Assembly (NCBI GenBank): GCA_022736555.1
Contig: DZCW01000002.1
Span: 25,070 to 89,069, forward strand
DNA length: 64,000 nt
Direction: 5' to 3'
Origin: Candidatus Saccharimonas sp.
Lineage (GTDB): Bacteria; Patescibacteriota; Saccharimonadia; Saccharimonadales; Saccharimonadaceae
Part shown: positions 10,923 to 49,711 of the stretch, one piece after another
Numbering within the stretch: the first letter of the stretch is position 1
Layout of the letters: each line of letters opens with the position of its first letter
The notes under the pieces: model-generated
What the model was told of the DNA's origin: nothing
Databases searched by the model: none
What the model saw: only the letters and a program-made list of their open reading frames with translations
Translations under genes and position numbers: made by a program

Positions 10923-12377
10923 ATGAATCTGTGGGTGTTGAGGCGTAAAGTCCATACCTCGTGGCTAATTGCTATTGGTTGCGGCGGAATATTCATTGGA
11001 GTACTTCTGTCGCAATATATTAGTTGGCCATTTATGCCGTCGATCTTTATTTTTGTATTATCACTTTTGCTAGTAGTATTGGCATTAAAGATGAGATGTA
11101 TTTATATAATACCCTTGTTGGTGATTGGTGGGATATTATTTGGATTATGGCGCGGATCAATGTCTCAGGTTGGGTTGGTGCAATTTAGACTATTTTATAA
11201 CACAACAGTATCGGTTGTTGGTAATGTCAAAGACGATGTCGACACTAATTCTACTAATCAGATAGTTATTAGGCTCGATAGTTTAGTGATTAATGATAAA
11301 CCATTGTCTGGAACTTTATGGGTGACATCAAGTAATGCCTATATTAAAAGAGGTGATGAATTATTGTTGCGGGGTGTTTTAAAAGAGGGGTTTGGTAACT
11401 TTTCGGGTGTTATCTATCGTGCCAGCATCGATCAAATTATTCATCCACAACCCGGTGATATAGCTCGTGTTGTACGTGATTGGTTCGCTGATAGTGTGCG
11501 CCGGGCAGTGCCCGATCCAGAATCTAGCCTCGGGATTGGTTATTTAGTTGGGCAACGTCGGGCCTTGCCCGCCGACTTAGCCTTAGCCTTGCAGATAGCG
11601 GGGCTTACCCATGTGGTGGTTGCTAGTGGTTATAATTTGACGATTTTGGTTCGTCTAGCGAGGCGGCTATTCGTTAAAGTTTCTAAATACCTATCGCTAT
11701 TATCGGCAACGACTATGATCGTGGTGTTTGTGGCAGTTACCGGTGTTAGCCCTAGCATGTCGCGAGCTGGGTTAGTGGCGCTACTTAGTTTGTTGGCCTG
11801 GTATTATGGCCGTCGGTTTCATCCGATTGTATTGCTGATGATTGCCGTTGCTGTGACTGTTATCGTGAACCCAAGTTATGCTTGGGGTGATTTAGGTTGG
11901 CAGTTGTCATTCTCGGCTTTTGCCGGCGTTATGATATTGGCGCCCTTATTACAGCGATACTTATTTGGTGATAAAAAACCAGGGACTATTCAGCAGATTT
12001 TAGGGGAGACTATATCAGCACAAATTGTCACAGCGCCGATATTAATAATGGCATTTGGTCAATTATCGAATGTAGCTATTGTTGCTAATTTATTAGTTTT
12101 GCCTTTAGTACCACTGGCGATGCTTTTGACGTTTATAGCTGGAATAGGTGGTTTGATATTACCGACATTTGCCACTGTTGTAGGGTTGCCGGCTACGTGG
12201 TTATTAGGCTATATGGTTAACGTGACGGAGTATCTCTCTAGCTTACCTTGGGCAACCAGTAAGATTCAATTTTCATGGTGGATGGAGGCTGGGTGCTATG
12301 TAATTATTGCTGCTATATGTTTATATCTTTGGCGAGTTACAAAGTACAATTTAAGGGAGGTTAATTTAGTTGAGTAA
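10923..12377 (+). CDS. comEC: ComEC/Rec2-family DNA-uptake channel (membrane core only)
   Basis: N-terminal OB/DUF4131-like segment followed by a polytopic competence domain (GLTHVVVASGYNLTIL, SMSRAGL). No C-terminal metallo-beta-lactamase domain fits in 484 aa. Confidence 0.75.
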   Translation: MNLWVLRRKVHTSWLIAIGCGGIFIGVLLSQYISWPFMPSIFIFVLSLLLVVLALKMRCIYIIPLLVIGGILFGLWRGSMSQVGLVQFRLFYNTTVSVVGNVKDDVDTNSTNQIVIRLDSLVINDKPLSGTLWVTSSNAYIKRGDELLLRGVLKEGFGNFSGVIYRASIDQIIHPQPGDIARVVRDWFADSVRRAVPDPESSLGIGYLVGQRRALPADLALALQIAGLTHVVVASGYNLTILVRLARRLFVKVSKYLSLLSATTMIVVFVAVTGVSPSMSRAGLVALLSLLAWYYGRRFHPIVLLMIAVAVTVIVNPSYAWGDLGWQLSFSAFAGVMILAPLLQRYLFGDKKPGTIQQILGETISAQIVTAPILIMAFGQLSNVAIVANLLVLPLVPLAMLLTFIAGIGGLILPTFATVVGLPATWLLGYMVNVTEYLSSLPWATSKIQFSWWMEAGCYVIIAAICLYLWRVTKYNLREVNLVE

Positions 12378-13193: not shown

Positions 13194-14681
13194 ATGCGTA
13201 AGCTGTATACCTGGTCTTTATTAGCTGGTATCGTCTTTATTTTATCTTTATTCAACACCCCCGTTTATGCTAGTAGTGACAGCGTAGTGATTAGTCAAGT
13301 TCGGATGGGATATTCGCCGTACAATAGTGATGAACTCGTAGAGATATATAATAATAGCAATAGTGATATCGAAGTGACCAATTGGTGCTTACGCTATGCT
13401 AAGGGTGACCTAAGTAACCTCGCCAATCCGATGGATGGGTTTAGCAATTTAATTTGTTTTATTCCAGAAAATGTTAGCTACCATATATTTTTACCAGCTC
13501 ATGAAATGGCTTTGGCGGTTTCTAATGAATTATTTGAATCTGTACCTAATTTTGGTGGAGATCTAGTATTTAGGACGCCTCTAGCTAACTCATCTGGCCA
13601 TGTTGATTTGGTTGATAGCGGTGGGGTTGAAATTGATCGGCTAGGATGGGGCACGGCTTCGGTCCCAGAAGGCTTAGCTCAAGCCAAAGTCCCAGATTCT
13701 GGTATGGCTTTGCAGCGAAAGTCGATTAGCCCGAACACGCTTCAAGACACTGACGAAAATAATAATGATTTTGAATCAGTTCCATTTAGAAGTATTTATG
13801 ACTATGGTTTCATATATGAGGTTCAGGACGTCTGTTCGAATTTAGCTGGTCTTCAATCTATTATACCGCTTGGTTACGCAGTTGATACTCATGGCGACTG
13901 CCAGGTTGATTGGTGCTCTAATATTATTGGCATACAGCAAATTATGCCTGATGATATGGAATTGGATGACAGTGGTGATTGTGTGGCGCACGACGAATGT
14001 TCTAATCTACTGGATATTCAAACTGATATCCCCAGTGGTTTCATTCGTGGAGACAATGATAGCTGTGCATTTAACTTGCTCCCGTTACAAGTCACTGAAT
14101 TATTACCGAATGCCGTCGGGAGCGATGATGGTAATGAGTTTATCGAAATATATAACCCCAACGACAGCGATATAAATTTGTTATATTTCTTTTTATATAT
14201 AGGCTCGGATTATACCCATTTTTATAGTTTTCCGGTTGGATCACATATCGGTGCTGGCCAATATCTAGCTTTCTCGAATGACGATATTAAGTTCACACTG
14301 GTGAATACGACCAGTAGTGTGCGACTGAGGGCAATCGATGGCGTGCTTTCTGATACGCTAGCTTATGATAGCCCTAAAGATGGCATAGCCTGGGCTTTAA
14401 TAGATGGTGTCTGGCAATATACTAATCAGCCGACACCTGGCGGCATAAACTTAAAGTCATTATTAAGTGAAGATGATGCTGTGGTGGAGAAAAATCTTGA
14501 GTCTTGTGGGCCTAATCAATATCGCAATCCAGATACGAACCGTTGTCGTTTAATTGCAACATCTAGTTCAGAGCTTACGCCATGCAAAGATGGGCAATAT
14601 CGTAGCGAAGAAACTAATCGATGCCGCAGTATTGCATCAGATGTAAATATATTAGTCCCATGCGCCGAAGGTGAAGAGTGA
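13194..14681 (+). CDS. Secreted surface protein with two lamin-tail domains (LTD), ending at an in-frame TGA
   Basis: Signal peptide ...FNTPVYA|SS. Two LTD-like blocks (ELVEIYNNSNSDIEVTNW; NEFIEIYNPNDSDINL). CSN(L/I)xG(L/I)Q repeats in the middle. The frame continues open after the TGA at 14679-14681. Confidence 0.8.
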   Translation: MRKLYTWSLLAGIVFILSLFNTPVYASSDSVVISQVRMGYSPYNSDELVEIYNNSNSDIEVTNWCLRYAKGDLSNLANPMDGFSNLICFIPENVSYHIFLPAHEMALAVSNELFESVPNFGGDLVFRTPLANSSGHVDLVDSGGVEIDRLGWGTASVPEGLAQAKVPDSGMALQRKSISPNTLQDTDENNNDFESVPFRSIYDYGFIYEVQDVCSNLAGLQSIIPLGYAVDTHGDCQVDWCSNIIGIQQIMPDDMELDDSGDCVAHDECSNLLDIQTDIPSGFIRGDNDSCAFNLLPLQVTELLPNAVGSDDGNEFIEIYNPNDSDINLLYFFLYIGSDYTHFYSFPVGSHIGAGQYLAFSNDDIKFTLVNTTSSVRLRAIDGVLSDTLAYDSPKDGIAWALIDGVWQYTNQPTPGGINLKSLLSEDDAVVEKNLESCGPNQYRNPDTNRCRLIATSSSELTPCKDGQYRSEETNRCRSIASDVNILVPCAEGEE

Positions 14682-14828
14682 AATCCTGGTACAAATCGTT
14701 GCAGGTCAATCACGGCCGTGTTAGGTGCTAGTGATTTAGTACCGTGTAAAACAGGCCAGGAACGTAATCCTGATACAAATCGCTGCCGAAATATAGTTGG
14801 TGCTATGCCCAAGGCCGATTATGCGCCC
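14505..14828 (+). repeat. Four tandem Cys-bracketed modules C-x3-Q-x-R-N-P-D-T-N-R-C-R
   Basis: CGPNQYRNPDTNRCR / CKDGQYRSEETNRCR / CAEGEE*NPGTNRCR / CKTGQERNPDTNRCR. The TGA occupies the conserved Arg position of module 3. Confidence 0.8.
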
Positions 14829-14981
14829 AAGCAGACCGCTAGTAATTCTAATAATTATATTATCTGGCTCTCGTTAGCGGTTGTTGGTATGGTGGCGGTA
14901 GGTTACGGTATTTGGGAATGGCGCCAGGAAATAAATAATGGTAGGCTAAAACTGCTTTCATTCCTGAAACACCGTAAATAA
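14682..14981 (+). CDS. In-frame continuation of the LTD protein: last repeat modules plus C-terminal TM anchor
   Basis: Same frame as 13194..14681. Contains YIIWLSLAVVGMVAVGYGIWEW (TM) followed by a basic tail. The track calls it from the GTG at 14718. Confidence 0.55.
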   Translation, partial: NPGTNRCRSITAVLGASDLVPCKTGQERNPDTNRCRNIVGAMPKADYAPKQTASNSNNYIIWLSLAVVGMVAVGYGIWEWRQEINNGRLKLLSFLKHRK

Positions 14982-14996
14982 CCTATACTAAGTGAT

Positions 14997-15470
14997 ATGA
15001 GAATTATCGGCATTGATCCAGGGACTGGCATATTGGGGTTTGGGGTTATTGATGCAACTCCTGGGAAAATGAAGCTAGTTGACGCTGGGGTTATAAAAAC
15101 ACCAGCGCACACACCAATCGAGATTCGTTTAGAAGATATTTTTGACAGTTTGACTGATATTATTGCCGAAACTAAACCACAGATTATGTCGATTGAGAAG
15201 CTTTTCTTTGCTCAAAATGTGACAACGGCTATGAGCGTTTCTCACGCCAGAGGAGTGGCGATGCTTGCAGGTCAAAAAGGTAAATTGGCAATTACCGAAT
15301 ATACCCCGCTACAGATTAAGCAAACAGTTACGGGTTACGGTCGGGCTAGTAAAAAGCAGGTTCAAGAAATGGTGCGAATCCAATTAGGGTTACTAAAAAT
15401 ACCGGAACCCGACGATTGTGCCGATGCTTTGGCGGCGGCGATTACCCATTATCTGATGACTCGAGTATAA
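14997..15470 (+). CDS. ruvC: Holliday junction resolvase RuvC
   Basis: MRIIGIDPGTGILGFGVID start and a C-terminal DDCADALAAAI. Confidence 0.9.
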   Translation: MRIIGIDPGTGILGFGVIDATPGKMKLVDAGVIKTPAHTPIEIRLEDIFDSLTDIIAETKPQIMSIEKLFFAQNVTTAMSVSHARGVAMLAGQKGKLAITEYTPLQIKQTVTGYGRASKKQVQEMVRIQLGLLKIPEPDDCADALAAAITHYLMTRV

Positions 15471-21461: not shown

Positions 21462-22028
21462 TTATTTTGTATAAACCTCCAGTATTATTGGGTCGACCTT
21501 GACTAGGCTATTAGAACTTGGGTCGCGACTGATAGTTATATTAGTTGGCTGTATCTTTGGCAGGTTAGTATCTATGGCTTTTAGGAATTTAATGAAATTA
21601 GTGAATGGTATACTTTTGCTGAATGTTATCGAAATAAACTTTGGCTGTATATTATTAATAGGGGCTAGGCTTTTTAGATTAGATGTCGGTGTTTCGACTA
21701 CGGCGTAGGTGATGCCTATACCAGTGCTGGCGGCATATTTATTCAGGTCGTTTATTATTTTTGTTGGAAAATCATGGCTTGATAATGTTATGGCGTTGGC
21801 TTTGTCGGCAGATATCTTGTAGGTGCTGATGTCATTTTGGAGTTTTGTTAGACTTTGCGAGCTGATTACGTTAGAAACTGATCTTAACGAAGCGTTCGGT
21901 TGATTTGCAAAATCTTTTAGATAGTTTTGCATAAAATAGAATCCACCGATTACGGTAAGTGTTGTTAGAAAAACTACAGTAGCCAGTACTACTCGTATTG
22001 TGGTCGCTTCGGTATAGTTTGTTTTCAT
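21462..22028 (-). CDS. PilO-like pilus assembly protein
   Basis: Bitopic protein with an N-terminal TM followed by a periplasm-side domain. ATGA overlap with the upstream pilN-like gene. Confidence 0.5.
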   Translation of the reverse strand: MKTNYTEATTIRVVLATVVFLTTLTVIGGFYFMQNYLKDFANQPNASLRSVSNVISSQSLTKLQNDISTYKISADKANAITLSSHDFPTKIINDLNKYAASTGIGITYAVVETPTSNLKSLAPINNIQPKFISITFSKSIPFTNFIKFLKAIDTNLPKIQPTNITISRDPSSNSLVKVDPIILEVYTK

Positions 22029-22540
22029 TTTAGCGACCTTATTGTTAGACTAATATCGACTTTTATAGGGTATCTGGGCACGGTGTTGGAGTCGGATGTT
22101 ATGGATTGTAGATTGTAATTTGAGAATTGGGCTATTTTTTGTAAGTTTCGCTTTAGTAGTGGCACGCTGTCTTCGTCACTGGCATGGAGTTGTATGTCTA
22201 TTGGGGAATCTAGAGTGGCGTTGCTAAAAGAAAGTTTATCTAATATCATCCCTGTTGGCAGTGCCGATGCAAAATTGGTGATTATGTCGCTGTATGACAC
22301 TTGTTGGTCTATAACACTCTGGGCTGTCGTAAGGCTAGTTTGCATGGTGTTAGCTCGCTGCATAATAGTTGCAGTAGTTGGGCTAGACTTTTCATTCGAT
22401 ATTATAAAGTACGCTGCCGTACAAATTACGATTAAATATATAACCGCACAACCTAGACTTATTATGATTTTGAGTAAAAACACATTAGTACGTGCGGCGC
22501 GAATTTGTTGTTTGGTTTCATCTGGCAATAGATTTATCAT
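22025..22540 (-). CDS. PilN-like fimbrial assembly protein
   Basis: MINLLPDE... conserved PilN N-terminus (INLLP) followed by a TM. ATGA overlap with the pilM stop. Confidence 0.6.
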   Translation of the reverse strand: MINLLPDETKQQIRAARTNVFLLKIIISLGCAVIYLIVICTAAYFIISNEKSSPTTATIMQRANTMQTSLTTAQSVIDQQVSYSDIITNFASALPTGMILDKLSFSNATLDSPIDIQLHASDEDSVPLLKRNLQKIAQFSNYNLQSITSDSNTVPRYPIKVDISLTIRSLK

Positions 22541-23601
22541 TCCCAAATACTCCCAGGTCTTACGCTGGCAAGCCCAGCAACGGCTATGTATCTAGATCGT
22601 AGTTGTTTAGTTGGTTCTGGCAGTTTACCGAAATCGAGTTTTCGCCATGGGCTAGCGACACGAGCGGGCATAATCAATTCATTAGTGAAATATTCGCCAA
22701 TACCAGGTACATTGCTACCGCTGCCTACAATTAATAGTTGTTCCAATTTACGATCATCGCTTATTCGTTCATTATAATAACGGATTACTTTGCGTGTTTC
22801 GGCAATAATTTGTTGTAAGCTGGGTTCGATTGAGTTTTTGATCTTTTGTTGGCGAGGTCCAGCGCTAAGCCCGTCCAATACTTTTAACTGGTAGGCATTT
22901 TCTAGGGTGATAGACAATTTACTAGCTATGTCTAACGTAAAGGTGTTACCACCGACCGCCAGTTCGCCAGTTACCCTAATCGCATCATTATCTAATATTG
23001 CGATATCAGTGCTAGCTGGCCCAATATCTACAATTACACTAGGTAGTTGTCCATATTCGGTGTTAGTTATCAGGCGAGCGACAGCGCTCATGCTAGGTTC
23101 TATCATGCAGACGGTTAGACCGGCATTTTCGGCGGCTAAGACACATTTATCCACTAATGTTCGAGCGACAGCGCTCATTAAAACAGTGACTTCTTTTTTG
23201 TTGCGTTCTACGATTCGGTAATCAATATAGAGGGTTGATGCTGGGATGGGTATGTATTGATCGGCTTCTAACTCTACTGCATCTTTTAAGTTTTTCTTGA
23301 TTTTAACCGGTAGGTTGAATGTCCTAGAATAGCTACGTGACGTGGGAATGCCAATAACAACATGGTCGCTCGGTAGTGACCCGATTATATTATCCTTGAT
23401 AAGCAATTGGATATTGTCAGCTAAATAAGTACTATTGCCCTCGAGTGACTCTTTGACTTTTATGGGGTCTAGGTCGATTGAGCCATAACCAAGTACGAGC
23501 CATCGTTTTATGTCGATAGCCATAATTTTAATACCAGTACTGCTGATATCAAGACCGATAATTGGTTTGTCTGTGTGAAATAACTTTGTCATAATGCCCA
23601 C
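22537..23601 (-). CDS. pilM: Type IV pilus assembly protein PilM (actin-like ATPase fold)
   Basis: IGLDISSTGIKIMAI and VDIGPASTDIAIL phosphate motifs. An alternative ATG lies at 23592. Confidence 0.8.
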   Translation of the reverse strand: MGIMTKLFHTDKPIIGLDISSTGIKIMAIDIKRWLVLGYGSIDLDPIKVKESLEGNSTYLADNIQLLIKDNIIGSLPSDHVVIGIPTSRSYSRTFNLPVKIKKNLKDAVELEADQYIPIPASTLYIDYRIVERNKKEVTVLMSAVARTLVDKCVLAAENAGLTVCMIEPSMSAVARLITNTEYGQLPSVIVDIGPASTDIAILDNDAIRVTGELAVGGNTFTLDIASKLSITLENAYQLKVLDGLSAGPRQQKIKNSIEPSLQQIIAETRKVIRYYNERISDDRKLEQLLIVGSGSNVPGIGEYFTNELIMPARVASPWRKLDFGKLPEPTKQLRSRYIAVAGLASVRPGSIWE

Positions 23602-23648
23602 TGTAATACCGATAATATTATAGCATGAGCTTATTGGGGTGTATATGT

Positions 23649-24878
23649 TTATGATTGGACGTTTTGAGCTAAGCCGGCGATTGGCATCATGACACTAACG
23701 GCTATTAATCCGACCATGGAGCCCATAATTACTATCATGACTGGTTCAATAATTGAACTGATACCTGCGATTGCTGTGTCGACTTCTTCTTCATAAAAAT
23801 CAGCCACTTTGACCAGAACTTTGTCGGTTTGTCCGGTTTCTTCGCCAACCGATAACATTTGTGAAACTATCGGAGGGAATAGAGGATTGGCGGCAATCAC
23901 CGAAGATAGAGTTTTACCATTTTTGACTTCTGCCTCTGCATCCACCAGGGCTTTTTCGTAGACGGTATTACCAACGGCACGCGAAGTCACGTCAATAGCC
24001 TCGAGCACTGCAACGCCTGCTTCGGTTAACGCCGAAAATGTGCGAGCAAAATGAGCTATCGCGACTTTTACTATTATTTTATTGATCAGCGGTGTTTTTA
24101 ATATTATGGTGTGAAATAATAATTTACCTTTTTTGGTTTTTATGTAGAGTAAGATTCCGTAGATACTGGCAAAAGCTACTATCAGTATTATGTACCAGTA
24201 ACTAATTATAAAGTGGCTAATGGCGAGCATGGCTACTGTTATAGCTGGAAGCTTGGCATCAGCACCACCTAAATCAGTAGTTATTTTACCTATTTGTGGA
24301 ATGATAAAAATCATAAGTCCAAAAAAAGCTAGGATAGTTATAAATAATAGAACGATTGGGTAGGCCATGGCGCTTTTAATTTTTTTACGTATTGCCATGC
24401 TTTTTTCTTGTTGTACGGCTAGCCTCTTTAATATTTCATCGATTATTCCAGCCGTTTCACCAGCCTTGACCATATTTATGTAAACGTCGTTAAAGGTTTC
24501 GGGGTGTTTGCCGAGGGCATTACCTAGCATTTCACCAGCTTCAACGTCACGTATGACATCATTAAGTATCCTTTGCATCGCTGGGCTGTCGGTCATATTA
24601 GTAGATAGGGCACTCAGGGCACGTAAAAGTGGGACACCGGCGCCAATCATAGCGCTGAGCTGGCGGGTAAACATCACTAATTGATCGGATTTTACTTTGC
24701 CAACGCCCAATATCCCCCCAAATTTAGTGGCGGTTTTCGGTTTACCCTCTCTAACACTAACTGGTCGGAGGCCTTGTTTGCCTAGGGCACTTATGGCGCT
24801 ACTGCGATCAGGCTGGTCGATCGTGCCATTTACTGGTGAGTCTTTTCCATCAATAGCAACGTAGGTGAATATTGGCAT
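23649..24878 (-). CDS. pilC: Type IV pilus platform protein PilC (GspF family)
   Basis: Duplicated T2SS-F domains with three TM segments (FTRQLSAMIGAGVPLLRAL; FARTFSALTEAGVAVLEAI). Confidence 0.9.
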   Translation of the reverse strand: MPIFTYVAIDGKDSPVNGTIDQPDRSSAISALGKQGLRPVSVREGKPKTATKFGGILGVGKVKSDQLVMFTRQLSAMIGAGVPLLRALSALSTNMTDSPAMQRILNDVIRDVEAGEMLGNALGKHPETFNDVYINMVKAGETAGIIDEILKRLAVQQEKSMAIRKKIKSAMAYPIVLLFITILAFFGLMIFIIPQIGKITTDLGGADAKLPAITVAMLAISHFIISYWYIILIVAFASIYGILLYIKTKKGKLLFHTIILKTPLINKIIVKVAIAHFARTFSALTEAGVAVLEAIDVTSRAVGNTVYEKALVDAEAEVKNGKTLSSVIAANPLFPPIVSQMLSVGEETGQTDKVLVKVADFYEEEVDTAIAGISSIIEPVMIVIMGSMVGLIAVSVMMPIAGLAQNVQS

Positions 24879-24880
24879 AG

Positions 24881-26692
24881 TTATTCCTTGGTTACTCGGA
24901 TAACCTCTTCGATGGTTGTTTCACCACGAAGAGCTTTGATAATTCCGTCAATCTGCATTCGTAACATACCCTCACTAATACCTTGGTCTTGGATTTGATT
25001 GCTCGAGGCATTTGACATTATGAGTTTTTGAACGGCGACTGAATTGTCTAGGACCTCATAGATGCCGATACGCCCTCTGTAGCCGCTTAGTGCGCTGTCT
25101 TCGTTATCGTCGGGATTATTGCGCCATAGAACATTAATACCGTGTTCGTCGGTACTAAGTGGAGTGTCGGCACCGATACCTTCGGCTGCGGCCTTTTTTT
25201 CGAGTTCGTGTATGAAACTAAAATCTTGATCTGGCTTGAGGCCGATCATACTCATAACCATTTGTTTCTCGGCCTCGGTTGGTTGATAACTCTGCCTGGT
25301 TTCATGGTGTAATTTGCGAACCAAGCGCTGTCCAACTACGACTCTGATAGTACTAGCAATTAAGAATGGTTCAATACCCATATCTAGTAGCCGCGGTAGG
25401 CAAGTTGAGGCATCATTAGTATGTAGAGTGCTAAGCACTAGATGCCCTGTTAATGCGGCCTGCACGCCTAGGTCAGCGGTTTCACCATCGCGGATCTCGC
25501 CGACCATGATAATGTTTGGGTCTTGGCGAAGTAGTGCTCTGAGCCCATTCGCAAAGGTTAAGCCAGCTTTTGGATTAGTTTGAGTTTGGTTAACACCTGG
25601 TATTTTATATTCAACTGGGTCTTCGACGGTAGAAATATTAACGCCTGGAGTATTTAAAATAGTCAGGATACTAAATAAACTGGTCGATTTACCGCTACCG
25701 GTTGGTCCAGTCACTAGAATCATCCCGTTAGCCTCGGTCATAGCCGCATTAATAGTTGCTAGGGGTTGTCCCCAATAACCTAATGATTCTAGCGAAACGG
25801 CTTGATTAGATTCATCCAGAATACGCATGACGATCTTTTCACCGTCAGTAACCGGCAGCGTGCTTACGCGCAAAGCATATTGTTTGCCGCCAACTTTAAT
25901 TTTAAAACGTCCGTCTTGTGGCACGCGGCGTTCATCAATTTTGAGGTTACTGAGGATTTTAACGCGGCTAACTAGTGCCATCAAGACATTACGAGGTAGG
26001 CGGTTTACTTCCTTTAACATGCCGTCTATTCGATAGCGTATTTGGACATAACCCTCGCGTGGTTCGATATGGATATCGCTAGCATGGGATCGAATAGCAG
26101 ATTCTAGTAGTAGATTTATTGTCTGAGCTATTGGTGAGTCTTCGGATATTTCTTGTTCTGATATGGTATCGTCATAGATTTCGTTACCGTCGCTATCGTC
26201 GTCATCTGTTTTGTCGGCACGTTGAATATTAATAACTTCATTTAATTCTTGGTTAACATCTCCGCGGTAGACCTCTAGGCTAGTGATTATATTATCGCGT
26301 GGTGCAATGTACACCTTGGTATTAGTTCCAATTTGTTTCTCAATAAAATTAACAGCCTGAACGTCATCAGGGTCATCCATGGCCAAGTGGTTGGTGCCAT
26401 CTTTGTCGATCTTGAATAACACGGCATTATATTGTCGGGCTATCCGTTCGGGTATCTTTTTAATTATATTCTGAGGTATAGTGCGGGGGTTTAACTCAAT
26501 ATATGGTATTTGAGCGTATTCCGAGAATGCCTTGGCCAGAGTTTTGTCAGTGATGAGTTCATTCTGAAAGGCTAAGGCTTGGAGTGACCGCTTTGAACTA
26601 GCCGCCTCTGTTCTTAGGGCGCCGGCCTGCTCTTTAGTGACTACGCCACTATGTACGAGCAAATTTTCCATTGTAACATCTGAAACGCGCAT
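24881..26692 (-). CDS. pilB: Type IV pilus extension ATPase PilB (GspE family)
   Basis: VTGPTGSGKSTSL Walker A, IMVGEIRD Asp box and LVLSTLHTND His box, with a GSPII-type N-domain. Confidence 0.9.
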   Translation of the reverse strand: MRVSDVTMENLLVHSGVVTKEQAGALRTEAASSKRSLQALAFQNELITDKTLAKAFSEYAQIPYIELNPRTIPQNIIKKIPERIARQYNAVLFKIDKDGTNHLAMDDPDDVQAVNFIEKQIGTNTKVYIAPRDNIITSLEVYRGDVNQELNEVINIQRADKTDDDDSDGNEIYDDTISEQEISEDSPIAQTINLLLESAIRSHASDIHIEPREGYVQIRYRIDGMLKEVNRLPRNVLMALVSRVKILSNLKIDERRVPQDGRFKIKVGGKQYALRVSTLPVTDGEKIVMRILDESNQAVSLESLGYWGQPLATINAAMTEANGMILVTGPTGSGKSTSLFSILTILNTPGVNISTVEDPVEYKIPGVNQTQTNPKAGLTFANGLRALLRQDPNIIMVGEIRDGETADLGVQAALTGHLVLSTLHTNDASTCLPRLLDMGIEPFLIASTIRVVVGQRLVRKLHHETRQSYQPTEAEKQMVMSMIGLKPDQDFSFIHELEKKAAAEGIGADTPLSTDEHGINVLWRNNPDDNEDSALSGYRGRIGIYEVLDNSVAVQKLIMSNASSNQIQDQGISEGMLRMQIDGIIKALRGETTIEEVIRVTKE

Positions 26693-29363: not shown

Positions 29364-30311
29364 ATGACTAAATCCGAAATTCGCAAAGACTATTTCAAGG
29401 ACGAGTATATTATTTTTGCCCCTAGTCGTTCCGAGAGGCCGCAGACTATCGAAAATCCTGCGGTTGTTGAGACTACTGAAAACTGTCACTTTTGTCCGCA
29501 TAGTTTTCATGGCGAGACTATAACCTATCAGGATGATGGTTATGGCGATGATTGGGAAGTGATTTCGATAGTTAACAAATTTGCAGCATTAACACCAGAC
29601 AACGACAGTGCCTACGGCCAGGCCGAAGTGATCGTTGAAACGCGAAAACACGGCATGGATATAAATGATTTTTCAGTTGACCATATCGTCCGAGTTTTTA
29701 ACGCCTATATTGATAGATTTACGAATCTAAAAAACATGGACGGGATCAAACATGTCATCGTGTTTAAAAACGAAGGTGGTAAAGCAGGTGCCTCGATAGC
29801 ACATACACACTCCCAGGTTATTGCTTTGCCCATATTACCGCCTAAAGTCGAAGCTGAAGCTATGGCTTATAATAAATATTACCTCGAACACGCCATCTGC
29901 CCATATTGTGACATTATAAAATTAGAAACCGACAAGCCTAGGGTTATATGGGAAGATGAAAATCTATTTGTATTGGCACCTTATGCTAGCAACTCGCCAT
30001 ACGGAGCCTGGTTCATTCCTAAGCGCCATATTCGATTGATATCCGAACTTACTCGTAGCGAAAAAGAATCGTTTGCGATTGCCATGAAGATTGTCTTAGG
30101 AAAATTGGATGAGATTGGTGTGTCGTATAATTACTTTGTCGAAAATGCTATTAATCGCGAAGACTATCATATGCATATAAAACTAGCGCCACGTCCAAAT
30201 GTTTGGGCCGGTCTAGAGCTAGGTACTGGCGTAATCATAAATTCTATTTTACCGGAACATGCCGCGGAAATTTATCGTGGGGAGACCAAGGCTAAAACAA
30301 TTAGGTTTTAG
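29364..30311 (+). CDS. GalT-like HIT-superfamily nucleotidyltransferase/phosphorylase
   Basis: CHFCPHS zinc knuckle and AHTHSQ (H-x-H-x-Q) active-site motif. Confidence 0.7.
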   Translation: MTKSEIRKDYFKDEYIIFAPSRSERPQTIENPAVVETTENCHFCPHSFHGETITYQDDGYGDDWEVISIVNKFAALTPDNDSAYGQAEVIVETRKHGMDINDFSVDHIVRVFNAYIDRFTNLKNMDGIKHVIVFKNEGGKAGASIAHTHSQVIALPILPPKVEAEAMAYNKYYLEHAICPYCDIIKLETDKPRVIWEDENLFVLAPYASNSPYGAWFIPKRHIRLISELTRSEKESFAIAMKIVLGKLDEIGVSYNYFVENAINREDYHMHIKLAPRPNVWAGLELGTGVIINSILPEHAAEIYRGETKAKTIRF

Positions 30312-30327
30312 TGGTAGAATAGCTAGC

Positions 30328-32840
30328 ATGAGCAGTGGGCAACTAGAGGGACTTTCGTCGAGAGAGGTTAAAGCTAAACAAAAAAGGTTTGGCTATAATG
30401 AACTCCCTAACCAATCCAAAAAGAACGTTCTAAAGATAGTCTTTGGGCTATTAACCGAGCCAATGATATTTTTGCTGATGGCAACCGTCAGTATTTATTT
30501 CGTTTTAGGTGATAAAAATGAGGCTTTTTTGCTGCTTATATCATTTATCGGTATTATTTCGATCGGACTTTACCAGGAATTGAAAACCGAGAAAACACTG
30601 CAGGCCCTGAAAAATCTATCTAGCCCTATATCTGATGTCATAAGGGATGGCAAGCGAGTAACCATTAATGGTCGCGAAATTGTAGTTGGCGATATCATAA
30701 TACTTAGCTACTTAGCGAAGGTAGCCGTGTGCCAGCTGATGCTAGACTAATTTCAGCGGATAATTTTAGGGTTGATGAATCATTATTAACTGGCGAATCT
30801 GAACTGGTTGAAAAGCGAGTGCGAAACGTAACTAGCCCAAATGACAATTTATTGTTTTCAGGCACGCTAATCGTCAAAGGTCACGGTATTGCCGAGGTAA
30901 CTAGTATTAGCGTTAAGACTGAAATTGGCAAAATAGGTACTTCACTAAAATCAATTGGCGTAGAAAAAACATTGTTGCAAAAGGAAGTTAATTGAGTTGT
31001 TGGTTTTGTGGCTATTTTGGCGATTGGTGCATCGCTACTGTTGACTTTGGTGTATTGGATCGGTCGGGGAGACCTAATTCGAGGGCTTTTGGCTGGCTTA
31101 ACACTAGCGATTGCTATTCTGCCAGAGGAATTCCCAGTTGTTCTAATGATATTTTTAACTTTGGGCGCTTGGAGACTAGCTAAAAGTAATGTTTTAACTC
31201 GTAAAGCTCATACTATCGAGACTTTAGGAAGCACGACGGTTTTATGTGTCGACAAAACTGGTACTCTAACTGAAAACCAAATGCGTATAGAGAGTGTAAT
31301 TAACGCCAAGGGGTCTATTTATAATGATAGTTTTGTTGATGTAGCGGAAATAATAGAATATGGAGTTTTGGCTTCACAAAAGAACCCTTACGATCCGATG
31401 GAAGAAGCTTTTATACTGGCTGGCAAGCAAGTTTTTGGAAATATCGACAAAGTATATAACAACCAGGAGATCGTCAGAGAATACCCCGTAGAAGACGGCT
31501 GCCTGTCGGTTGCACAGGTCTGGGGATATAACGATAAACCCGAGGAAGTCGCCTTAAAAGGGGCGCCAGAGACCGTCTTTGAACTCTGTCATATTCATAA
31601 ATCTCAACGCATCAAACTCGAACGCGAAGTTAAGGGTTTGGCCGAACGTGGGTTGAGGGTGCTCGCGATAGCCCGTGGATCGATCGGCAAAGGGGAATTG
31701 CCAGACGATCGTCATGATTTTGATTTCGAGTTTTTAGGTTTAGTTGGTTTAGCTGATCCAGTTCGCAAAGAAGTACCTGCGGCGGTAAAAATATGTGAAG
31801 AAGCTGGCATCAGGGTGATTATGATAACTGGCGATTATTTAGAAATGGCTATTAATATAGCTAAACAGGCTGGTATAGCGAATCGTGGAGCCATCACTGG
31901 ATTAGAGTTTGAGCAGATGTCTAAATCGGATAGGGCCAACACCATTAAGTCCGTGTCGGTGTTTAGTCGTGTTAATCCATCCCATAAATTATTGATAGTA
32001 AATGCCCTAAAAGAGTCCGGTGAAGTAGTGGCTATGACGGGTGATGGGGTTAACGATGCACCCGCATTAAAGTCGGCGCACGTCGGTATTGCGATGGGTG
32101 GCAGGGGTACGGATGTTGCTCGAGAAGCGGCCAGTATAGTGCTGCTGGACGATAATTTTACTTCAATCGTTCATGGTGTTCGTCTAGGGCGCAAGATTTA
32201 TGATAATTTGCGCAAGGCCATGTCATATATTATTTCAGTCCATATTCCTATTGCCCTATTGTCGCTTTTGCCCGTGCTATTTAAATGGCCAATAGTTTTG
32301 ATACCAGCCCATATTGTGTTTTTAGAATTTGTGATTGACCCAAGTTGCACGATTATTTTCGAGAATGAAAAAGAAAGTCATAACATCATGAGCCGTCCAC
32401 CGCGTAAACTATCTGAGCCAATCTTTAGCAAAAGGATGGTCGTAAGTAGTATTCTGCAGGGCTTATTAGTAGCGATAATCGTCGTAGTTGCTTTTAGGGT
32501 ATTATTAGATATAGGCTGGAGCCCAGATAAAGCTCGCGGTATGACGTTTCTAATACTAGTCATTGCTAATATCTTCCTGATATTAGGTATCTCCGGTAAA
32601 CAGGCTATAGCAAATATTATTCATCGTGAGAATAAAGCCATGATAATAGTTCTATTAGTAACATCCATATCGCTAGTCTTGGTGTTCAATGTGGTGTTTT
32701 TGCGAGAGCTATTCCATTTCGAGCCATTAACTTTTAACGAAGCATCAATAGGAGTGTTGGTAGGCGCTTTGTCGATATTCGGTATTATGCCGCTTAAATA
32801 TTTGATAAATAGGGTGGCTTCTAGGGGTTTAGCGAAGTAG
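30328..32840 (+). pseudogene. Cation-transporting P-type ATPase (type II-like), disrupted
   Basis: Three track ORFs (30259-30750, 30729-30995, 31008-32840) jointly carry TGES, DKTGTLT, TGDGVNDAP and 10 TMs. A frameshift is caused by the 8-bp duplication at 30701-30716, and an in-frame TGA lies at 30993-30995. Confidence 0.85.
30701..30716 (+). repeat. 8-bp perfect tandem duplication TACTTAGC TACTTAGC causing the frameshift
   Basis: Removing one copy restores [36 protein letters not shown], the canonical A-domain sequence. Confidence 0.9.
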
Positions 32841-40845: not shown

Positions 40846-41610
40846 TTAGGGTCTAAGTGTACCTGCAAATACCTGCCAAGCAAGTAGTGATTTGGCGACT
40901 AGACTTAGAATAATGTAGGCTCGTTCGCCGTATATATAATCTTTCCATGGTCCGATTTTTTTGTACTGCAAGACCATATTGATTGCGAAACAGTTAAAGA
41001 ATACAAAGATCGATACGAATATCCAATAAACGAAAGTTGGGGCGGCGCTACCATTTGCGGCACCTAGCCACATATAAAAGGCGATTACTAGCCATGGAAT
41101 TAGACCAGATAAACTGCCGATCCAAAAACTTAACCAACTAGTTTTCTTGGTTGTTTGATTGTGGACTTCCATAACCAATCCCATCAAATTCATGATAGCG
41201 GTCAGTACGAATATCATGGCGAGGCTGGCTAGATCATAAATACCAACTAGTAATGATATAGCTACCATCATTATGCTGGCAGATATCGAATATTCAATCC
41301 AGCGGGCTTTGTTGATGCCGAGTGATAAATTGCGATTATATTTTTTGTTATAAATAGTAGCAATAATCAGATGAGCGGCCGCGCATAGAAAGAAAAATAT
41401 TGCGATTAACATCGGTAACGATAAATCAAACAAGAGTTTAGTTGTCGGCTCCAGACTCTGCGAACTGGCATTAAAAGTTAGATAATTACCGCTAATAGGT
41501 AATGTGAACGCCTTGCTGAGGATTAATATTATTACTCCCTGTGCTAAATGCAAAAAACCCATCGTTAGATTAAATTTGCGTAAACTAGTTGTTGTAATTT
41601 TGTTTGTCAT
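40846..41610 (-). CDS. Heliorhodopsin
   Basis: 7-TM, 254 aa. Carries LRKFNLTMGFLHLAQG, AAAHLII, RWIEYSISASIMMV (counter-ion Glu position), and GERAYIILSLVAKSLLAWQVFAGTL (Schiff-base Lys in TM7). These match the heliorhodopsin 48C12/TaHeR pattern recalled from the literature. Confidence 0.85.
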   Translation of the reverse strand: MTNKITTTSLRKFNLTMGFLHLAQGVIILILSKAFTLPISGNYLTFNASSQSLEPTTKLLFDLSLPMLIAIFFFLCAAAHLIIATIYNKKYNRNLSLGINKARWIEYSISASIMMVAISLLVGIYDLASLAMIFVLTAIMNLMGLVMEVHNQTTKKTSWLSFWIGSLSGLIPWLVIAFYMWLGAANGSAAPTFVYWIFVSIFVFFNCFAINMVLQYKKIGPWKDYIYGERAYIILSLVAKSLLAWQVFAGTLRP

Positions 41611-43907: not shown

Positions 43908-44288
43908 GTGAGAACTGGTATACTAGTTATAGTTATGGATTTAAATAAATATATCGTTAGTGATAATACAGGCAAGCCGTTTCATAGTAGCGGAATTGCC
44001 AGAATTAACAGAGGCGATAGGTTGGGCGTAGATACTAATGTATCATTTAATCAACGGCAACAAATCAACGGCAATCGACAATTAATTAATGATTATCACA
44101 GTTCTGTAATAGGTAATACTCGTAGTGTTTTGGCCGCCAGGCCAGTTAGCCCGGAAGCGATAGATAGTCGTTTAAGGGTGCCAGCTAGACAGCCAATCCA
44201 AAATCCTCGTAATACTACGCAGGGTATAACTATACCGCCACGTAGTTTTAACGAGCCTAATGCCAGAGGCTATAACCCTTACTCCTAG
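43908..44288 (+). CDS. Hypothetical small Arg/Asn/Gln-rich protein
   Basis: 126-aa ORF from a GTG start (an alternative ATG lies at 43935). No motif recognised. Its stop overlaps the murA stop in CTAG. Confidence 0.4.
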   Translation: MRTGILVIVMDLNKYIVSDNTGKPFHSSGIARINRGDRLGVDTNVSFNQRQQINGNRQLINDYHSSVIGNTRSVLAARPVSPEAIDSRLRVPARQPIQNPRNTTQGITIPPRSFNEPNARGYNPYS

Positions 44289-45814
44289 ATCTCGCGGAAT
44301 GTTTCAATATCAGCGCCTAAAGTATTTAGACGATTAGCGAAATCTTCATACCCACGGTTTATCGAATAAACATTTCGTAGTATCGAATGACCAGGTGCGG
44401 CCAGCATCGCTAGCATTATAACAACAGATGGGCGTAGGGCTGGAGGTGTTACTATATCGGCCGGTTTCCATTTGGTTGGTCCGGTAATATAAACACGATG
44501 TGGGTCGACTAGCTCGATATTAGCGTTCAATTTACTAAGTTCGGTGAAATAAATAGCTCGGTTTTCGTATGACCAGTCGTGAACCATGGTTCGGCCATTA
44601 GCCACAGTGGCAATCAATCCTAGGAAGGGCAAGTTGTCCATATTTACGCCCGGGAATGGCATACTGTGTAATTTGTCCTTGGGCGCATTTAGCTTTGAAT
44701 GGAGCACGGTGATGTCTACTAGGCGCGTTTCATTATTACGAGCCTTATATTCGTCGCTTATATTATATTGCAAACCCATGCTACTGAGGATGGATAATTC
44801 TATTTCGATGAATTCAATCGGCGCACGTTTGACGGTAATTTCAGAATTAGTGACTATACCGGCTGCGATTAAGCTCATGGCCTCGATCGGGTCTTCGCTA
44901 ATATAATATTCGACATTTTTATTAATACTACGAACACCACGGATGACTAGGGTGGTTGTTCCAATACCATCGATCTTGACACCTAATTTTTGTAAATAAA
45001 AACACAAATCTTGAACCATGTAATTTGGACTGGCATTACGGATAGTAATTGTGCCGTCGTAAAGGGCAGCGGCCATTAGAACATTTTCGGTAGCGGTATC
45101 GCTACGTTCAGTTAGTAATATGGTATGGTCGACGGTTTTTTTGGTGACAGTAGCGTTATAATACTCTGATTTGGTCTCGATACTTAAACCGAACGGTGCC
45201 AAACCAGCTAGATGGGGTTCGACAGTTCTAACGCCCAGGTTACACCCGCCAGCGAACGGTAATTTAAATTCTCGGTACTGGTGTAATAGAGGGCCAAGCA
45301 GCATGATGATCGTTCGTGTGCGTTTAGCTGAATCGATATTCATATCGTTCAGTTTTAATCTGGCTGGCGGGATAATTTCTAGATCGTTTTTATCATTTAA
45401 CCAGCGAATTTTAACGCCAATACTCTGCAGGACTTCGATAATTCGATTAACCTCTTCGATCCTAGCGACACGTCGTAGGGTTGTTGTGCCGTGGTTCAAT
45501 AAGCTAGCACAAAGTAGTCCAACCGCAGCATTTTTGCTGGTTTTTACTTCGATTTCACCGGATAGTTTTTTGCCACCATTAATACGAAAGTCGATTTTAC
45601 CTGATTGGTTCAAACTAACAAGTTCACTTGACAAAACGTCGCTAATACGGGCCAGCATCTCAAGGCTGATATTTTGTCCACCTTTTTCAATACGATTTAT
45701 AGCACTTTGGCTAGTGCTAAGCGCTTCGGCTAGCTGGGCCTGAGTTAGCCCACGTGATTGTCTGTTCTCTTGAATTAATGTACCGATTTTAACTTTGTAA
45801 TCATCATTCGTCAT
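44285..45814 (-). CDS. murA: XRE-type HTH domain fused to UDP-N-acetylglucosamine 1-carboxyvinyltransferase (MurA)
   Basis: Residues 1-65 read IQENRQSRGLTQAQLAEALSTSQSAINRIEKGGQNISLEMLARI (HTH_3-like). The MurA body follows from KIDFRINGGKKLSGEIEVKTSKNAA, with the active-site loop FAGGCNLGVRTVEPH. No internal start codon at the junction. Confidence 0.85.
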   Translation of the reverse strand: MTNDDYKVKIGTLIQENRQSRGLTQAQLAEALSTSQSAINRIEKGGQNISLEMLARISDVLSSELVSLNQSGKIDFRINGGKKLSGEIEVKTSKNAAVGLLCASLLNHGTTTLRRVARIEEVNRIIEVLQSIGVKIRWLNDKNDLEIIPPARLKLNDMNIDSAKRTRTIIMLLGPLLHQYREFKLPFAGGCNLGVRTVEPHLAGLAPFGLSIETKSEYYNATVTKKTVDHTILLTERSDTATENVLMAAALYDGTITIRNASPNYMVQDLCFYLQKLGVKIDGIGTTTLVIRGVRSINKNVEYYISEDPIEAMSLIAAGIVTNSEITVKRAPIEFIEIELSILSSMGLQYNISDEYKARNNETRLVDITVLHSKLNAPKDKLHSMPFPGVNMDNLPFLGLIATVANGRTMVHDWSYENRAIYFTELSKLNANIELVDPHRVYITGPTKWKPADIVTPPALRPSVVIMLAMLAAPGHSILRNVYSINRGYEDFANRLNTLGADIETFREI

Positions 45815-47368: not shown

Positions 47369-47896
47369 CTAGCTAGCTGGAGCTGCGAAGTCTGATGATG
47401 AACTTGCTGTACCTACGTATACGTAGTTAGTCGATTGCAAGCCTGTAGAGAAGTCGTAGTAAGTGATCCTACCGCCGGTTGGGCTAGTACATGTTGGAGA
47501 ACAGGTCCAGGTAACTGTGCTTGGGAAGTTAGCTGAAGTGATTGTTGTACCCCATAGTGTTGCAACTGAAACTGGAGCGCCAGTGAATGCGCCAGCCGTT
47601 CCACCTATGCCTGGTACGACAAACATATTTGATGGTAATTTAGTCGTTAAGCCAGCGTCGGAAAATGTAGCTGCAGTTGGAGGATATGATCCGTTATCTG
47701 CATTATATATATCAGCAACGTTTCGTGCGCTCTGAGCGTTAGTCTGTGCTTGAGTGGTCTTTGCACGGGCCGTTACGCCTGTGTATGAGATTATCGTGAT
47801 AGCTGCCAAGATGCCGATAACGACAATAACAACCAAAAGTTCAACGATCGTGAAACCGCTATCCTTTTTTATGCCTTTAATATCTTTTGAGATCAT
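47369..47896 (-). CDS. Type IV pilin (probable major pilin)
   Basis: ...KKDSG|FTIVELLVVIVVIGILAAI with Glu+5. Strong AGGGGG RBS, its own terminator, and a Thr/Ser/Gly-rich C-terminal half with Cys pairs. Confidence 0.85.
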   Translation of the reverse strand: MISKDIKGIKKDSGFTIVELLVVIVVIGILAAITIISYTGVTARAKTTQAQTNAQSARNVADIYNADNGSYPPTAATFSDAGLTTKLPSNMFVVPGIGGTAGAFTGAPVSVATLWGTTITSANFPSTVTWTCSPTCTSPTGGRITYYDFSTGLQSTNYVYVGTASSSSDFAAPAS

Positions 47897-47998
47897 TTAT
47901 TTGCCCCCTATTTTTTTGATTATAATTACAATATACTATAACGTTTATGTTAACACAATCATATTAAAATAGATATTTACTTTTAGACTCTATTTATT

Positions 47999-48826
47999 CT
48001 ATTCATTTAATGCACTGACACGGATTGTGCCAGTCTGAGTCACATCGTGTCCGGCAATAGTATTAGTGGCGGTTATTGTTACTCCTATAGTACTAATAGC
48101 CTGTAGTGTAGTCTGACGATCACTGTCGGACTTAGTATTATCGCTAGATACAGAATCTGCTGTAGTTGACGATGGACTACTATAATAACTAATATTAAAA
48201 CCACTCGAACCCACGCCATCAACTAGGCGAACATCCTGAGCTTTGCAAAATACTCCAGATATGCCAGGGTAACAACTGGGGCGCTGCCATGGTACGCTAC
48301 AACCTGCCGTAGCGTAATTAGCGGGTGCAACCACGCGCCGCCATAGGGTATTATCTTTTACAAAATATACGATGTTCAGAGTTATGGGTTGGTTTAAGTT
48401 AACTAAATTACTACCACACGGGTTGGGACCATTGCTGTATATAATATTTCTAGTTGAAGTGATTGGGTTACTGGTTGTCGCATAGGTATTCAGGATCAAC
48501 ATTGTGCCAGTTGTCGTACTAACGTTATGAAAGTTCGAAGTGCCGTCGTTATTATATCCCTGAGGTGATGTTAATGATACGCTATTGGTTGCCAGATAAT
48601 TACTACTAGATTTTACGTCTTCCTCGATGCGATTTAGGGCATCTTGGATATTGTAAACAAGGGCGTTAGCGCCACGGCTAACTAATACTCCACCGGTTAT
48701 ATAAACAATTACATTTATGAAAATGCCTATCGCGAGGATAATGATTGGCATTACAACCAGCATTTCAACTAATGTGAAACCTCTTTTTGTGTCGATTCCT
48801 GAATTATAGTGTGACGTATGTCGCAT
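47999..48826 (-). CDS. Pilin-like protein (minor pilin candidate)
   Basis: ...TKRG|FTLVEMLVV prepilin motif. 23-nt overlap with the upstream gene. Confidence 0.75.
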   Translation of the reverse strand: MRHTSHYNSGIDTKRGFTLVEMLVVMPIIILAIGIFINVIVYITGGVLVSRGANALVYNIQDALNRIEEDVKSSSNYLATNSVSLTSPQGYNNDGTSNFHNVSTTTGTMLILNTYATTSNPITSTRNIIYSNGPNPCGSNLVNLNQPITLNIVYFVKDNTLWRRVVAPANYATAGCSVPWQRPSCYPGISGVFCKAQDVRLVDGVGSSGFNISYYSSPSSTTADSVSSDNTKSDSDRQTTLQAISTIGVTITATNTIAGHDVTQTGTIRVSALNE

Positions 48827-49187
48827 TGGTGACTACCTGCTGAGGTGTATTATATTTAACCGTTGCGGTGACTTTAGATATAGAATTAGTTGAACTATAT
48901 GGGCAGGTTATTGCTACGGTCACGGTGGCATTCGATATATTGAGCACGGTTATGGGCTGGTCTGATAAAGGGGTTTGAACTACGCATGGGTTGGTGGCGG
49001 TTGATTTGTAACGCTGTAAGTAATCGTAAGCTACGTTACTAGCGTTAGCTTTGGCACGCGTTTCGCCACTATCTTTGACTACTATTGTATATAGTTGATA
49101 GCCAGCAACTAGAAAGATAGCGGCAATGAATAGTGTGACTAGTAATTCGACTGTAGTAAAACCTGATTGGTATGAGTTTTTTTTCAT
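48804..49187 (-). CDS. Pilin-like protein (minor pilin candidate)
   Basis: MKKNSYQSG|FTTVELLV prepilin motif. 4-nt overlap with the upstream gene. Confidence 0.75.
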   Translation of the reverse strand: MKKNSYQSGFTTVELLVTLFIAAIFLVAGYQLYTIVVKDSGETRAKANASNVAYDYLQRYKSTATNPCVVQTPLSDQPITVLNISNATVTVAITCPYSSTNSISKVTATVKYNTPQQVVTNATYVTL

Positions 49188-49711
49188 TGATTTTTACTCG
49201 TTGTTGTATGGATAGTGTTATCAGACTCAGTTGTATAATACAGATTAAATTTACGGCATTCTTGGGAATCCTGAGTGCACAAGGTTCCATCGCCCTGGAT
49301 TGGTTGATAAATATATTGATTAATATTTGGTGACGGAATATTGGTGTTGCTAGCTGATATAAAAGTTTGGGTTGGATCCGTTATGCCAGGTGCGATCAAT
49401 GATTGGGCCTTTATGTCGCGTAGAAACTGTTTCATAGATAAAGATGTGGCAGTGAGGGTTGTTGGTGGGTAATCGCCAGTAGCCGCGGAACTGTCGGTAC
49501 CCGAAGTATAGTAAGTTTCTAGCTGTGTTGCGATAGATTCTATGTCGGCTTTACGTTCGGCATCTCGAGCGCCGATCTGTGATCCACGCAGGTTTATAAC
49601 CCCCAAGGTTAACAGCATACCCATAATCACTATGACGATAAGCAGTTCCACTATAGTAAACCCACGACGATTCATACCTATAATCATAAGCGTATAAGGG
49701 TTAAACCGCAA
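49184..49711 (-). CDS. Pilin-like protein (minor pilin candidate)
   Basis: ...MNRRG|FTIVELLIV prepilin motif. Confidence 0.75.
   Translation of the reverse strand: MRFNPYTLMIIGMNRRGFTIVELLIVIVIMGMLLTLGVINLRGSQIGARDAERKADIESIATQLETYYTSGTDSSAATGDYPPTTLTATSLSMKQFLRDIKAQSLIAPGITDPTQTFISASNTNIPSPNINQYIYQPIQGDGTLCTQDSQECRKFNLYYTTESDNTIHTTTSKNQ

Follow-up and report, generated by a model that had tools for sequence, protein, structure and literature searches.

A probable young nonsense allele of a conserved lamin-tail-domain surface protein gene in a cave-biofilm strain of Saccharibacteria

The locus and its reading frame

In the current report, we describe a gene for a surface protein with lamin tail domains (LTDs; PF00932) that is interrupted by an in-frame TGA codon in a Candidatus Saccharimonas sp. 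genome (assembly GCA_022736555.1). The gene lies in a 64,000-nucleotide stretch of contig DZCW01000002.1 (positions 25,070 to 89,069), which was analyzed as a whole and is referred to below as the window; all coordinates are those of this window. As the initial annotation had stated, an open reading frame (ORF) of 495 amino acids (aa) begins at the ATG at 13194 and stops at the TGA at 14679-14681, and the same frame then remains open for a further 99 codons, up to the TAA at 14979-14981. Direct reading of the translation agreed with its further claims that the codons beyond this stop complete a set of four cysteine modules and a transmembrane (TM) anchor, and that the arginine codons matching the TGA in modules 1, 2, and 4 are CGC, CGT, and CGT, respectively. 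The identical 495-aa product is encoded on the Logan contigs of SRR1560064 and SRR404261 and on JGI 3300000232, and gene callers additionally predict an 87-aa ORF (14718-14981, from the GTG at 14718) on the Logan and JGI contigs. The features of the locus, together with those of a second disrupted gene discussed below, are collected in Table 1.

A 99-codon open frame behind a stop codon is not rare by itself: at 40 plus-strand gene ends, the open runs after the stop had a median of 10 codons and exceeded 99 codons in two cases. Homologues, however, cover approximately 100% of the 595-aa read-through product, and thus homology, not the size of the open run, decides that the tail is real.

Table 1. 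Coordinates of the features of the interrupted surface-protein gene and of the second disrupted gene in the window.
Feature	Position	Strand	Remarks
Truncated LTD surface-protein ORF, 495 aa including signal peptide	13194..14681	+	Ends at the premature TGA
Signal peptide MRKLYTWSLLAGIVFILSLFNTPVYA	13194..13271	+	Hydrophobic 15-mer with mean Kyte-Doolittle value of 2.1; N-terminus conserved in homologues; cleavage site inferred
LTD1	13272..13811	+	Best PF00932 stretch, residues 27-153; hypervariable between strains
Three Cys-bounded CxN(L/I)xG(I/L)Q...P.G...C repeats between the LTDs	13833..14066	+	Read from the translation
LTD2, conserved	14079..14423	+	Second PF00932 stretch; 80-95% nucleotide identity to L080
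Stalk, four C-x3-[QE]-x-R-x3-T-N-R-C-R modules	14505..14789	+	Each a predicted beta-hairpin closed by its two cysteines
Stalk module 1, C-GPN-QYR-NPDTNRCR	14505-14549	+	
Stalk module 2, C-KDG-QYR-SEETNRCR	14583-14627	+	
Stalk module 3, C-AEG-EE(stop)-NPGTNRCR	14661-14705	+	(stop) = TGA
Stalk module 4, C-KTG-QER-NPDTNRCR	14745-14789	+	
Premature TGA, codon 496, from CGA (Arg)	14679..14681	+	Between the two cysteines of module 3
Orphaned tail	14682..14981	+	Rest of module 3, module 4, linker, TM helix, cytoplasmic tail, and TAA at 14979-81
TM helix, hydrophobic 19-mer IIWLSLAVVGMVAVGYGIW	14859-14915	+	Mean Kyte-Doolittle value of 2.0; followed by WEWRQE in the cytoplasmic tail
P-type cation ATPase pseudogene	30259..32840	+	Two strain-specific lesions
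8-bp tandem duplication ACTTAGCT, frameshifting the ATPase	30702..30709	+	Present in X1 and X2; absent (8 nt fewer at 30701) in X5, X9, and X10
Second premature TGA, from CGA	30993..30995	+	C at 30993 in X5, X9, and X10

Architecture and conservation of the protein family

The read-through product matched 1051 homologues, nearly all of which are 550-650 aa long, align over approximately 100% of the query, carry PF00932, and come from Saccharibacteria/Saccharimonadales; the best match among the GTDB species representatives has 59% aa identity. In reference genomes, ruvC follows the gene directly; in the window, as in its close relatives, the gene is flanked by yebC and ruvCAB. The full reading frame 13194-14981 is orthologous to a conserved type-I membrane protein of Saccharibacteria of approximately 600 aa.

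The AlphaFold2 (AF2) model of one homologue, P0005 (mean pLDDT 78.7), contains a signal helix (residues 2-20), an LTD1 beta-sandwich (31-206, pLDDT ~90), the Cys repeats, the strands of LTD2 (296-408, pLDDT ~88-90), four stalk hairpins of low pLDDT (440-451, 466-477, 492-503, and 520-531; 50-69), and a C-terminal TM helix. The Pfam model PF00932 matched in two stretches (E 4.5e-18, 66 bits versus a cut-off of 34.3). In Foldseek searches, the sandwich domains superposed on the tail domains of lamins A/C, B1, and B2, which were the top matches (TMt 0.63-0.73), with LTD1 matching those of lamins A/C and B1 (TMt 0.65-0.73). The cysteines of the inter-LTD repeats are residues 214, 236, 241, 263, 269, and 291, and relatives carry three to five such repeats. 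The four-module stalk was found in 115 of 120 homologues, and profile searches found no Pfam or NCBIfam model for its modules; a literature search on the lamin tail domain in Saccharibacteria returned tangential papers only.

The TM segment with its [WF]EW[RH] end is present in 119 of the 120 homologues. The sole exception, P0097 (612 aa), has a tail that resembles a frameshifted version of this end, which suggests that anchor-loss lesions arise occasionally elsewhere in the family.

The ancestral codon and the direction of change

The residue aligned with the TGA is arginine in all 120 homologues, and arginine occupies the equivalent module position in 479 of the 480 module instances that they contain. 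At 28 species-representative loci (GTDB), the comparison of orthologues for a CGN codon that the initial annotation had proposed gave CGT at nine, CGA at eight, CGC at six, AGA at five, and TGA at none. Codon 496 is CGA in four close relatives (X5, L087, L080, and L085) with a nucleotide divergence of 1.5-12% in this region. X5, a 90.8-kb contig, has C at 14679 and differs from the window at 8 of 521 bases (14580-15100), and the RuvC protein of L080, L085, and L087 is identical to that of the window. By comparison, T at 14679 was found in the window, X1, X2, and L083, and the TGA allele occurs only in sequences that are 100% identical to the window.

Since the relatives carry CGA, and TGA is confined to window-identical sequences, the CGA>TGA change arose in the window lineage after its split from X5. 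The proposed CGA-to-TGA origin of the stop that splits the anchored protein from its anchor is thereby demonstrated directly, through CGA in four relatives and an invariant arginine, and this also establishes which codon is ancestral, which way it changed, and that the change is confined to one lineage. Orthologues that also end at this codon, with unrelated sequence downstream, had been named as the observation that would speak against such an origin; the relatives instead have no stop here, and their tails are homologous, those of L080 and L087 being almost identical to the tail in the window. L085 had been suggested as a second TGA-bearing population by an 87-aa gene call and was rejected, as it reads CGA. 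A degenerate 42-mer scan of metagenome contigs over the site gave no matches, but it also missed the known JGI contig.

Samples in which the allele is found

The window, the two Logan assemblies (SRR404261 and SRR1560064), and JGI 3300000232 agree without any difference, at a word depth of approximately 15x. SRR1560064 derives from a study of Frasassi/Acquasanta cave biofilms (PMC4288042), and JGI 3300000232 bears the sample code PC08-64, which denotes a Frasassi sulfidic-cave biofilm. The longest contig is the same in X1 and X2 (75,033 bp), as are the contig coordinates; independence of the TGA-bearing runs was therefore rejected, with X1, X2, and JGI 3300000232 representing one Frasassi sample, PC08-64. 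A cave run from 2025 (X3) yielded fragments that are more than 99% identical to the window, with no contig over 14605-14726 or over the ATPase lesions.

TGA as a terminator in this genome

In a gene set built greedily from ORFs of 90 aa or more (66 in total), the stop codon is TAA in 34, TAG in 25, and TGA in seven, the premature LTD stop included. Among the six genuine TGA stops, four lie in ATGA stop/start overlaps (22025-28, 27210-13, 36731-34, and 49184-87) and one forms a TGA-TAA tandem. The TGA of PilN and its overlap are conserved in L080; gene calls had suggested that PilN is broken in L080 and L081, but it is intact. TGA is thus a normal terminator in this genome, which uses code 11. 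The stop usage is itself unusual for a genome of 40.7% GC, as TAG is common and TGA is rare and mostly located in ATGA overlaps.

Searches for elements of a recoding system gave negative results. The anticodon UCA is present in none of the seven tRNAs of the window, a fold of 14670-14790 revealed no significant RNA structure downstream of the stop (z = -1.65), and an Rfam scan recovered tRNAs only, with no SECIS or other recoding element. The 64-kb window does not contain prfB, the loss of which would be expected, together with a UCA anticodon, under a reassigned code.

A second gene disrupted in the same strain

The only other in-frame TGA in the window (30993-30995) had been described as falling where arginine is plausible, and this proved correct, since X5, X9, and X10 have CGA at this codon. 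It interrupts a P-type cation ATPase gene in which the Pfam domains Cation_ATPase_N, E1-E2_ATPase, Hydrolase, and Cation_ATPase_C remain colinear across this TGA and across a frameshifting 8-bp duplication that the initial annotation had missed. With two strain-specific lesions, the ATPase gene is a pseudogene. Both in-frame TGAs fall at arginine because CGA is one transition away from TGA, and not through a code in which TGA specifies arginine; the presence of a CGA>TGA change and an 8-bp duplication in the same genome points to ordinary, ongoing gene decay.

Selection on the tail and the age of the lesion

In intact relatives, the 99-codon tail evolves with an omega of 0.015-0.11 at a synonymous divergence (dS) of 0.2-0.45, and this strong purifying selection indicates that the anchor is important. 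Derived changes in the tail of the window lineage comprise a non-synonymous one (14689, D>G in NPDTNRCR) and two synonymous ones, too few to show relaxed selection, and neither a frameshift nor a further stop is present. An intact tail in the window thus argues for a very young lesion.

Four or five substitutions derived in the window, the nonsense change among them, fall within 79 nt (14639, 14679, 14689, and 14717, and possibly 14693). In the remaining ~440 nt of the comparison with X5 (14580-15100), the only additional difference is an unpolarized one at 15065.

A hypervariable first lamin tail domain

The LTD1 region (13300-13899) shows 29-54% nucleotide identity to L080 (8250-8950), versus 87-100% per 100-nt bin in the flanks. 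The signal peptide, LTD2, stalk, and anchor are 80-100% identical between L080 and the window, and L080 carries one extra Cys repeat (30 aa); X5 also diverges strongly from the window upstream of 14580. The neighboring genes are 94-98% identical between strains that differ in LTD1. Judged by this pattern, LTD1 appears to be a strain-variable, exposed surface domain, and its divergence resembles allele replacement or diversifying selection acting on such a domain.

Interpretation

We consider it highly probable that the gene is an ordinary young nonsense allele of a conserved surface-protein gene, created by a single C>T change (CGA>TGA) at codon 496; a recent nonsense mutation is the best supported of the three options put forward in the initial annotation, the others being low-level read-through and a sequencing or assembly error. 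A C>T transition turned codon 496 from CGA (Arg) into TGA in one Frasassi cave-biofilm strain of Saccharibacteria and, because TGA is a normal terminator, translation ends inside stalk module 3. The resulting protein would retain the signal peptide and both LTDs and would be without module 4, the TM anchor, and the partner cysteine of C490; it contains 13 cysteines, an odd number, as C490 is left without its presumed partner C503. With the signal peptide kept and the TM anchor lost, its architecture predicts a product that is exported and not tethered. This product would probably be misfolded at its C-terminal end, or degraded, and we infer that it is either released or degraded. The net effect would be a loss-of-function or loss-of-anchoring allele.

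Several points weigh against this explanation. Every TGA-bearing assembly comes from one biological sample, and agreement at the contig level gives neither the frequency of the allele nor its fixation. The undecayed tail suits a very young lesion, but equally suits continued use of the tail. Moreover, the clustering of substitutions around the stop is unexplained by a plain single-hit model. A short imported recombination tract or a local multi-hit event is possible as the source of this cluster, and gene conversion from another module is unsupported, as only 14693 matches module 4.

We give an outside chance to a variant in which the allele was selected because it switches off or releases a fast-evolving surface protein that serves in host contact or as a phage receptor, with trace read-through of UGA leaving a small anchored pool. 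The hypervariability of LTD1 among strains whose neighboring genes are 94-98% identical can be cited for it and, if it were true, TGA>CGA would offer an easy one-step return.

A functionally leaky stop is improbable. Under this proposal, a low and useful level of UGA read-through, by tRNA-Trp or another tRNA, would yield mostly released protein together with a little of the anchored form, and this benefit would keep the allele in the population. The tail is wholly intact, as would be expected, and the base following the stop is A, a UGA-A context that favored read-through by tRNA-Trp in early work on E. coli; an intact tail is, however, expected anyway for a lesion younger than ~1% divergence, and the residue inserted in place of arginine would enter an invariant position. 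Proteogenomics in Salmonella revealed low-level translation through many pseudogene lesions, but the stops read through there are mainly UAG, and the adjacent base is most often C (PMC9122581). Low-level near-cognate read-through of this UGA, the option raised in the initial annotation, may occur but gained no support as a maintained feature: none of the relatives terminates at this codon, all of them carrying arginine codons, and no recoding signal was found (the downstream structure is not significant, and Rfam reported only tRNAs). Programmed stop read-through was rejected on the same grounds, since neither the stop nor its context is conserved.

An artefact, in which the true genome has CGA and the T is a library or consensus error, is very unlikely. 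The TGA-bearing assemblies all come from one sample and probably represent one HiSeq library deposited twice, which leaves some room for it. Nevertheless, three assemblies and the window agree at ~15x, a depth at which a consensus substitution error in Illumina data is very unlikely, and the same contigs hold the ATPase TGA and the 8-bp duplication, such that an error would be needed three times. The assembly or sequencing error suggested in the initial annotation is thus largely excluded, within the single sample from which this agreement comes.

It is extremely unlikely that the gene has been split into two cooperating parts, a secreted ectodomain and a small membrane protein translated separately from the GTG at 14718. 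Gene callers do place an 87-aa ORF there, but these 87 codons are merely the old reading frame; the sole purine-rich stretch upstream is an AGG (14703-05) located 12 nt from the GTG, with no clear ribosome-binding site, the fragment would have to export its 50 N-terminal residues without a signal peptide, and no relative has this arrangement.

Finally, next to no probability attaches to a reassigned or recoded TGA (read as arginine, as glycine or tryptophan as in codes 25 and 4, or as selenocysteine) through which both in-frame TGAs would be translated. In its favor, both align with arginine and have CGA as their counterpart in relatives, no stop codon of the window is rarer than TGA, and some other candidate-phyla lineages read TGA as glycine. 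Against it, TGA closes six genes, four times within an ATGA overlap, with one of these stops kept in L080, just two in-frame TGAs occur in ~66 genes, one of these genes being also frameshifted, no UCA anticodon is found among the seven window tRNAs, and close relatives with near-identical neighboring genes use CGA. An alternative code with TGA as a sense codon is contradicted by these terminators and by the two in-frame TGAs, both CGA in relatives, and selenocysteine by an aligned residue that is invariably arginine rather than Cys/Sec, together with the fold (z = -1.65) and an Rfam result of tRNAs only, with no SECIS-like match. The LTD TGA therefore belongs to no recoding system, as every testable defining feature failed.

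Comparison with known systems

The closest counterpart is the ordinary bacterial pseudogene or truncated allele produced by CGA>TGA, with which the present gene shares an in-frame stop at a sense codon of its orthologues, homologous in-frame sequence beyond that stop, a stop codon that is a normal terminator in the genome, and a second decaying gene nearby. Nothing essential differs, although the lesion here is unusually young, is free of secondary damage, and is found in one population. The change is a textbook example of a CGA>TGA nonsense mutation, observed at an early stage and in a single environmental population.

A truncated form of internalin A in Listeria monocytogenes provides an example of a premature-stop allele that releases an anchored surface protein. 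There, a nonsense mutation upstream of the anchoring segment likewise gives an exported, unanchored protein; internalin A is held by an LPXTG sortase anchor, whereas the Saccharibacteria protein has a C-terminal TM helix. Proteins with the lamin tail domain (PF00932) share with the present one the Ig-like beta-sandwich fold, as it has two PF00932 domains and the AF2 model superposes on lamin tails, but here the setting is bacterial and extracytoplasmic, in a type-I membrane protein that also has Cys repeats and a stalk of four hairpins.

The pseudo-pseudogenes of Salmonella (PMC9122581) are similar in that traces of the full-length protein could be made despite an in-frame stop, the gene being intact in all other respects; the stops read through there are mainly UAG, most often with an adjacent C, whereas the present one is UGA followed by A. 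Genomes with a reassigned TGA (table 25 in Absconditabacteria/Gracilibacteria; table 4) offer a superficial parallel, namely, a candidate-phyla-radiation bacterium with in-frame TGA in conserved genes, but here TGA terminates genes, and there are only two in-frame TGAs, both strain-specific changes from CGA.

Other features of the window

The gene for ComEC (10923-12377) is located near the LTD gene, and three pseudopilin genes with the N_methyl motif and a PilB/PilC/PilM/PilN cluster also lie nearby (47369-49711 and 21462-26692, both on the minus strand), which places type IV pilus and competence machinery around the surface protein. A full-length heliorhodopsin gene (40846-41610, minus strand; PF18761, E 4e-98) is present in this Saccharibacteria genome from a dark, sulfidic cave biofilm. 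An enzyme of the MurA/EPSP-synthase family (44285-45814, minus strand) carries an N-terminal XRE-type helix-turn-helix (HTH_3, E 3e-13), which is an unusual fusion. In a thymidylate-kinase-like ORF (62476-63201, minus strand), the P-loop FDGNHRSGKNT lies upstream of any ATG, GTG, or TTG, and an ATA (63198-63196) overlaps the TAA of the upstream gene (ATAA). This ATAA resembles an ATGA stop/start overlap that has undergone a G>A change; translation may begin at a non-canonical start, or the gene could be impaired.

Implications

Annotations should mark gene 13194-14981 and the ATPase gene 30259-32840 as disrupted and should not list the 87-aa ORF at 14718-14981 as a gene. Nor should the two in-frame TGAs be read as a sign that Saccharibacteria use an alternative genetic code. 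The gene family may merit more attention than the TGA itself: this surface protein is widely conserved in Saccharibacteria (over 1000 homologues), keeps its place between yebC and ruvCAB, and combines an LTD1 that is hypervariable between strains with a four-hairpin Cys stalk. A part in attaching these episymbionts to their hosts, or in recognition by phages, is plausible, and naturally truncated alleles could help to test it.

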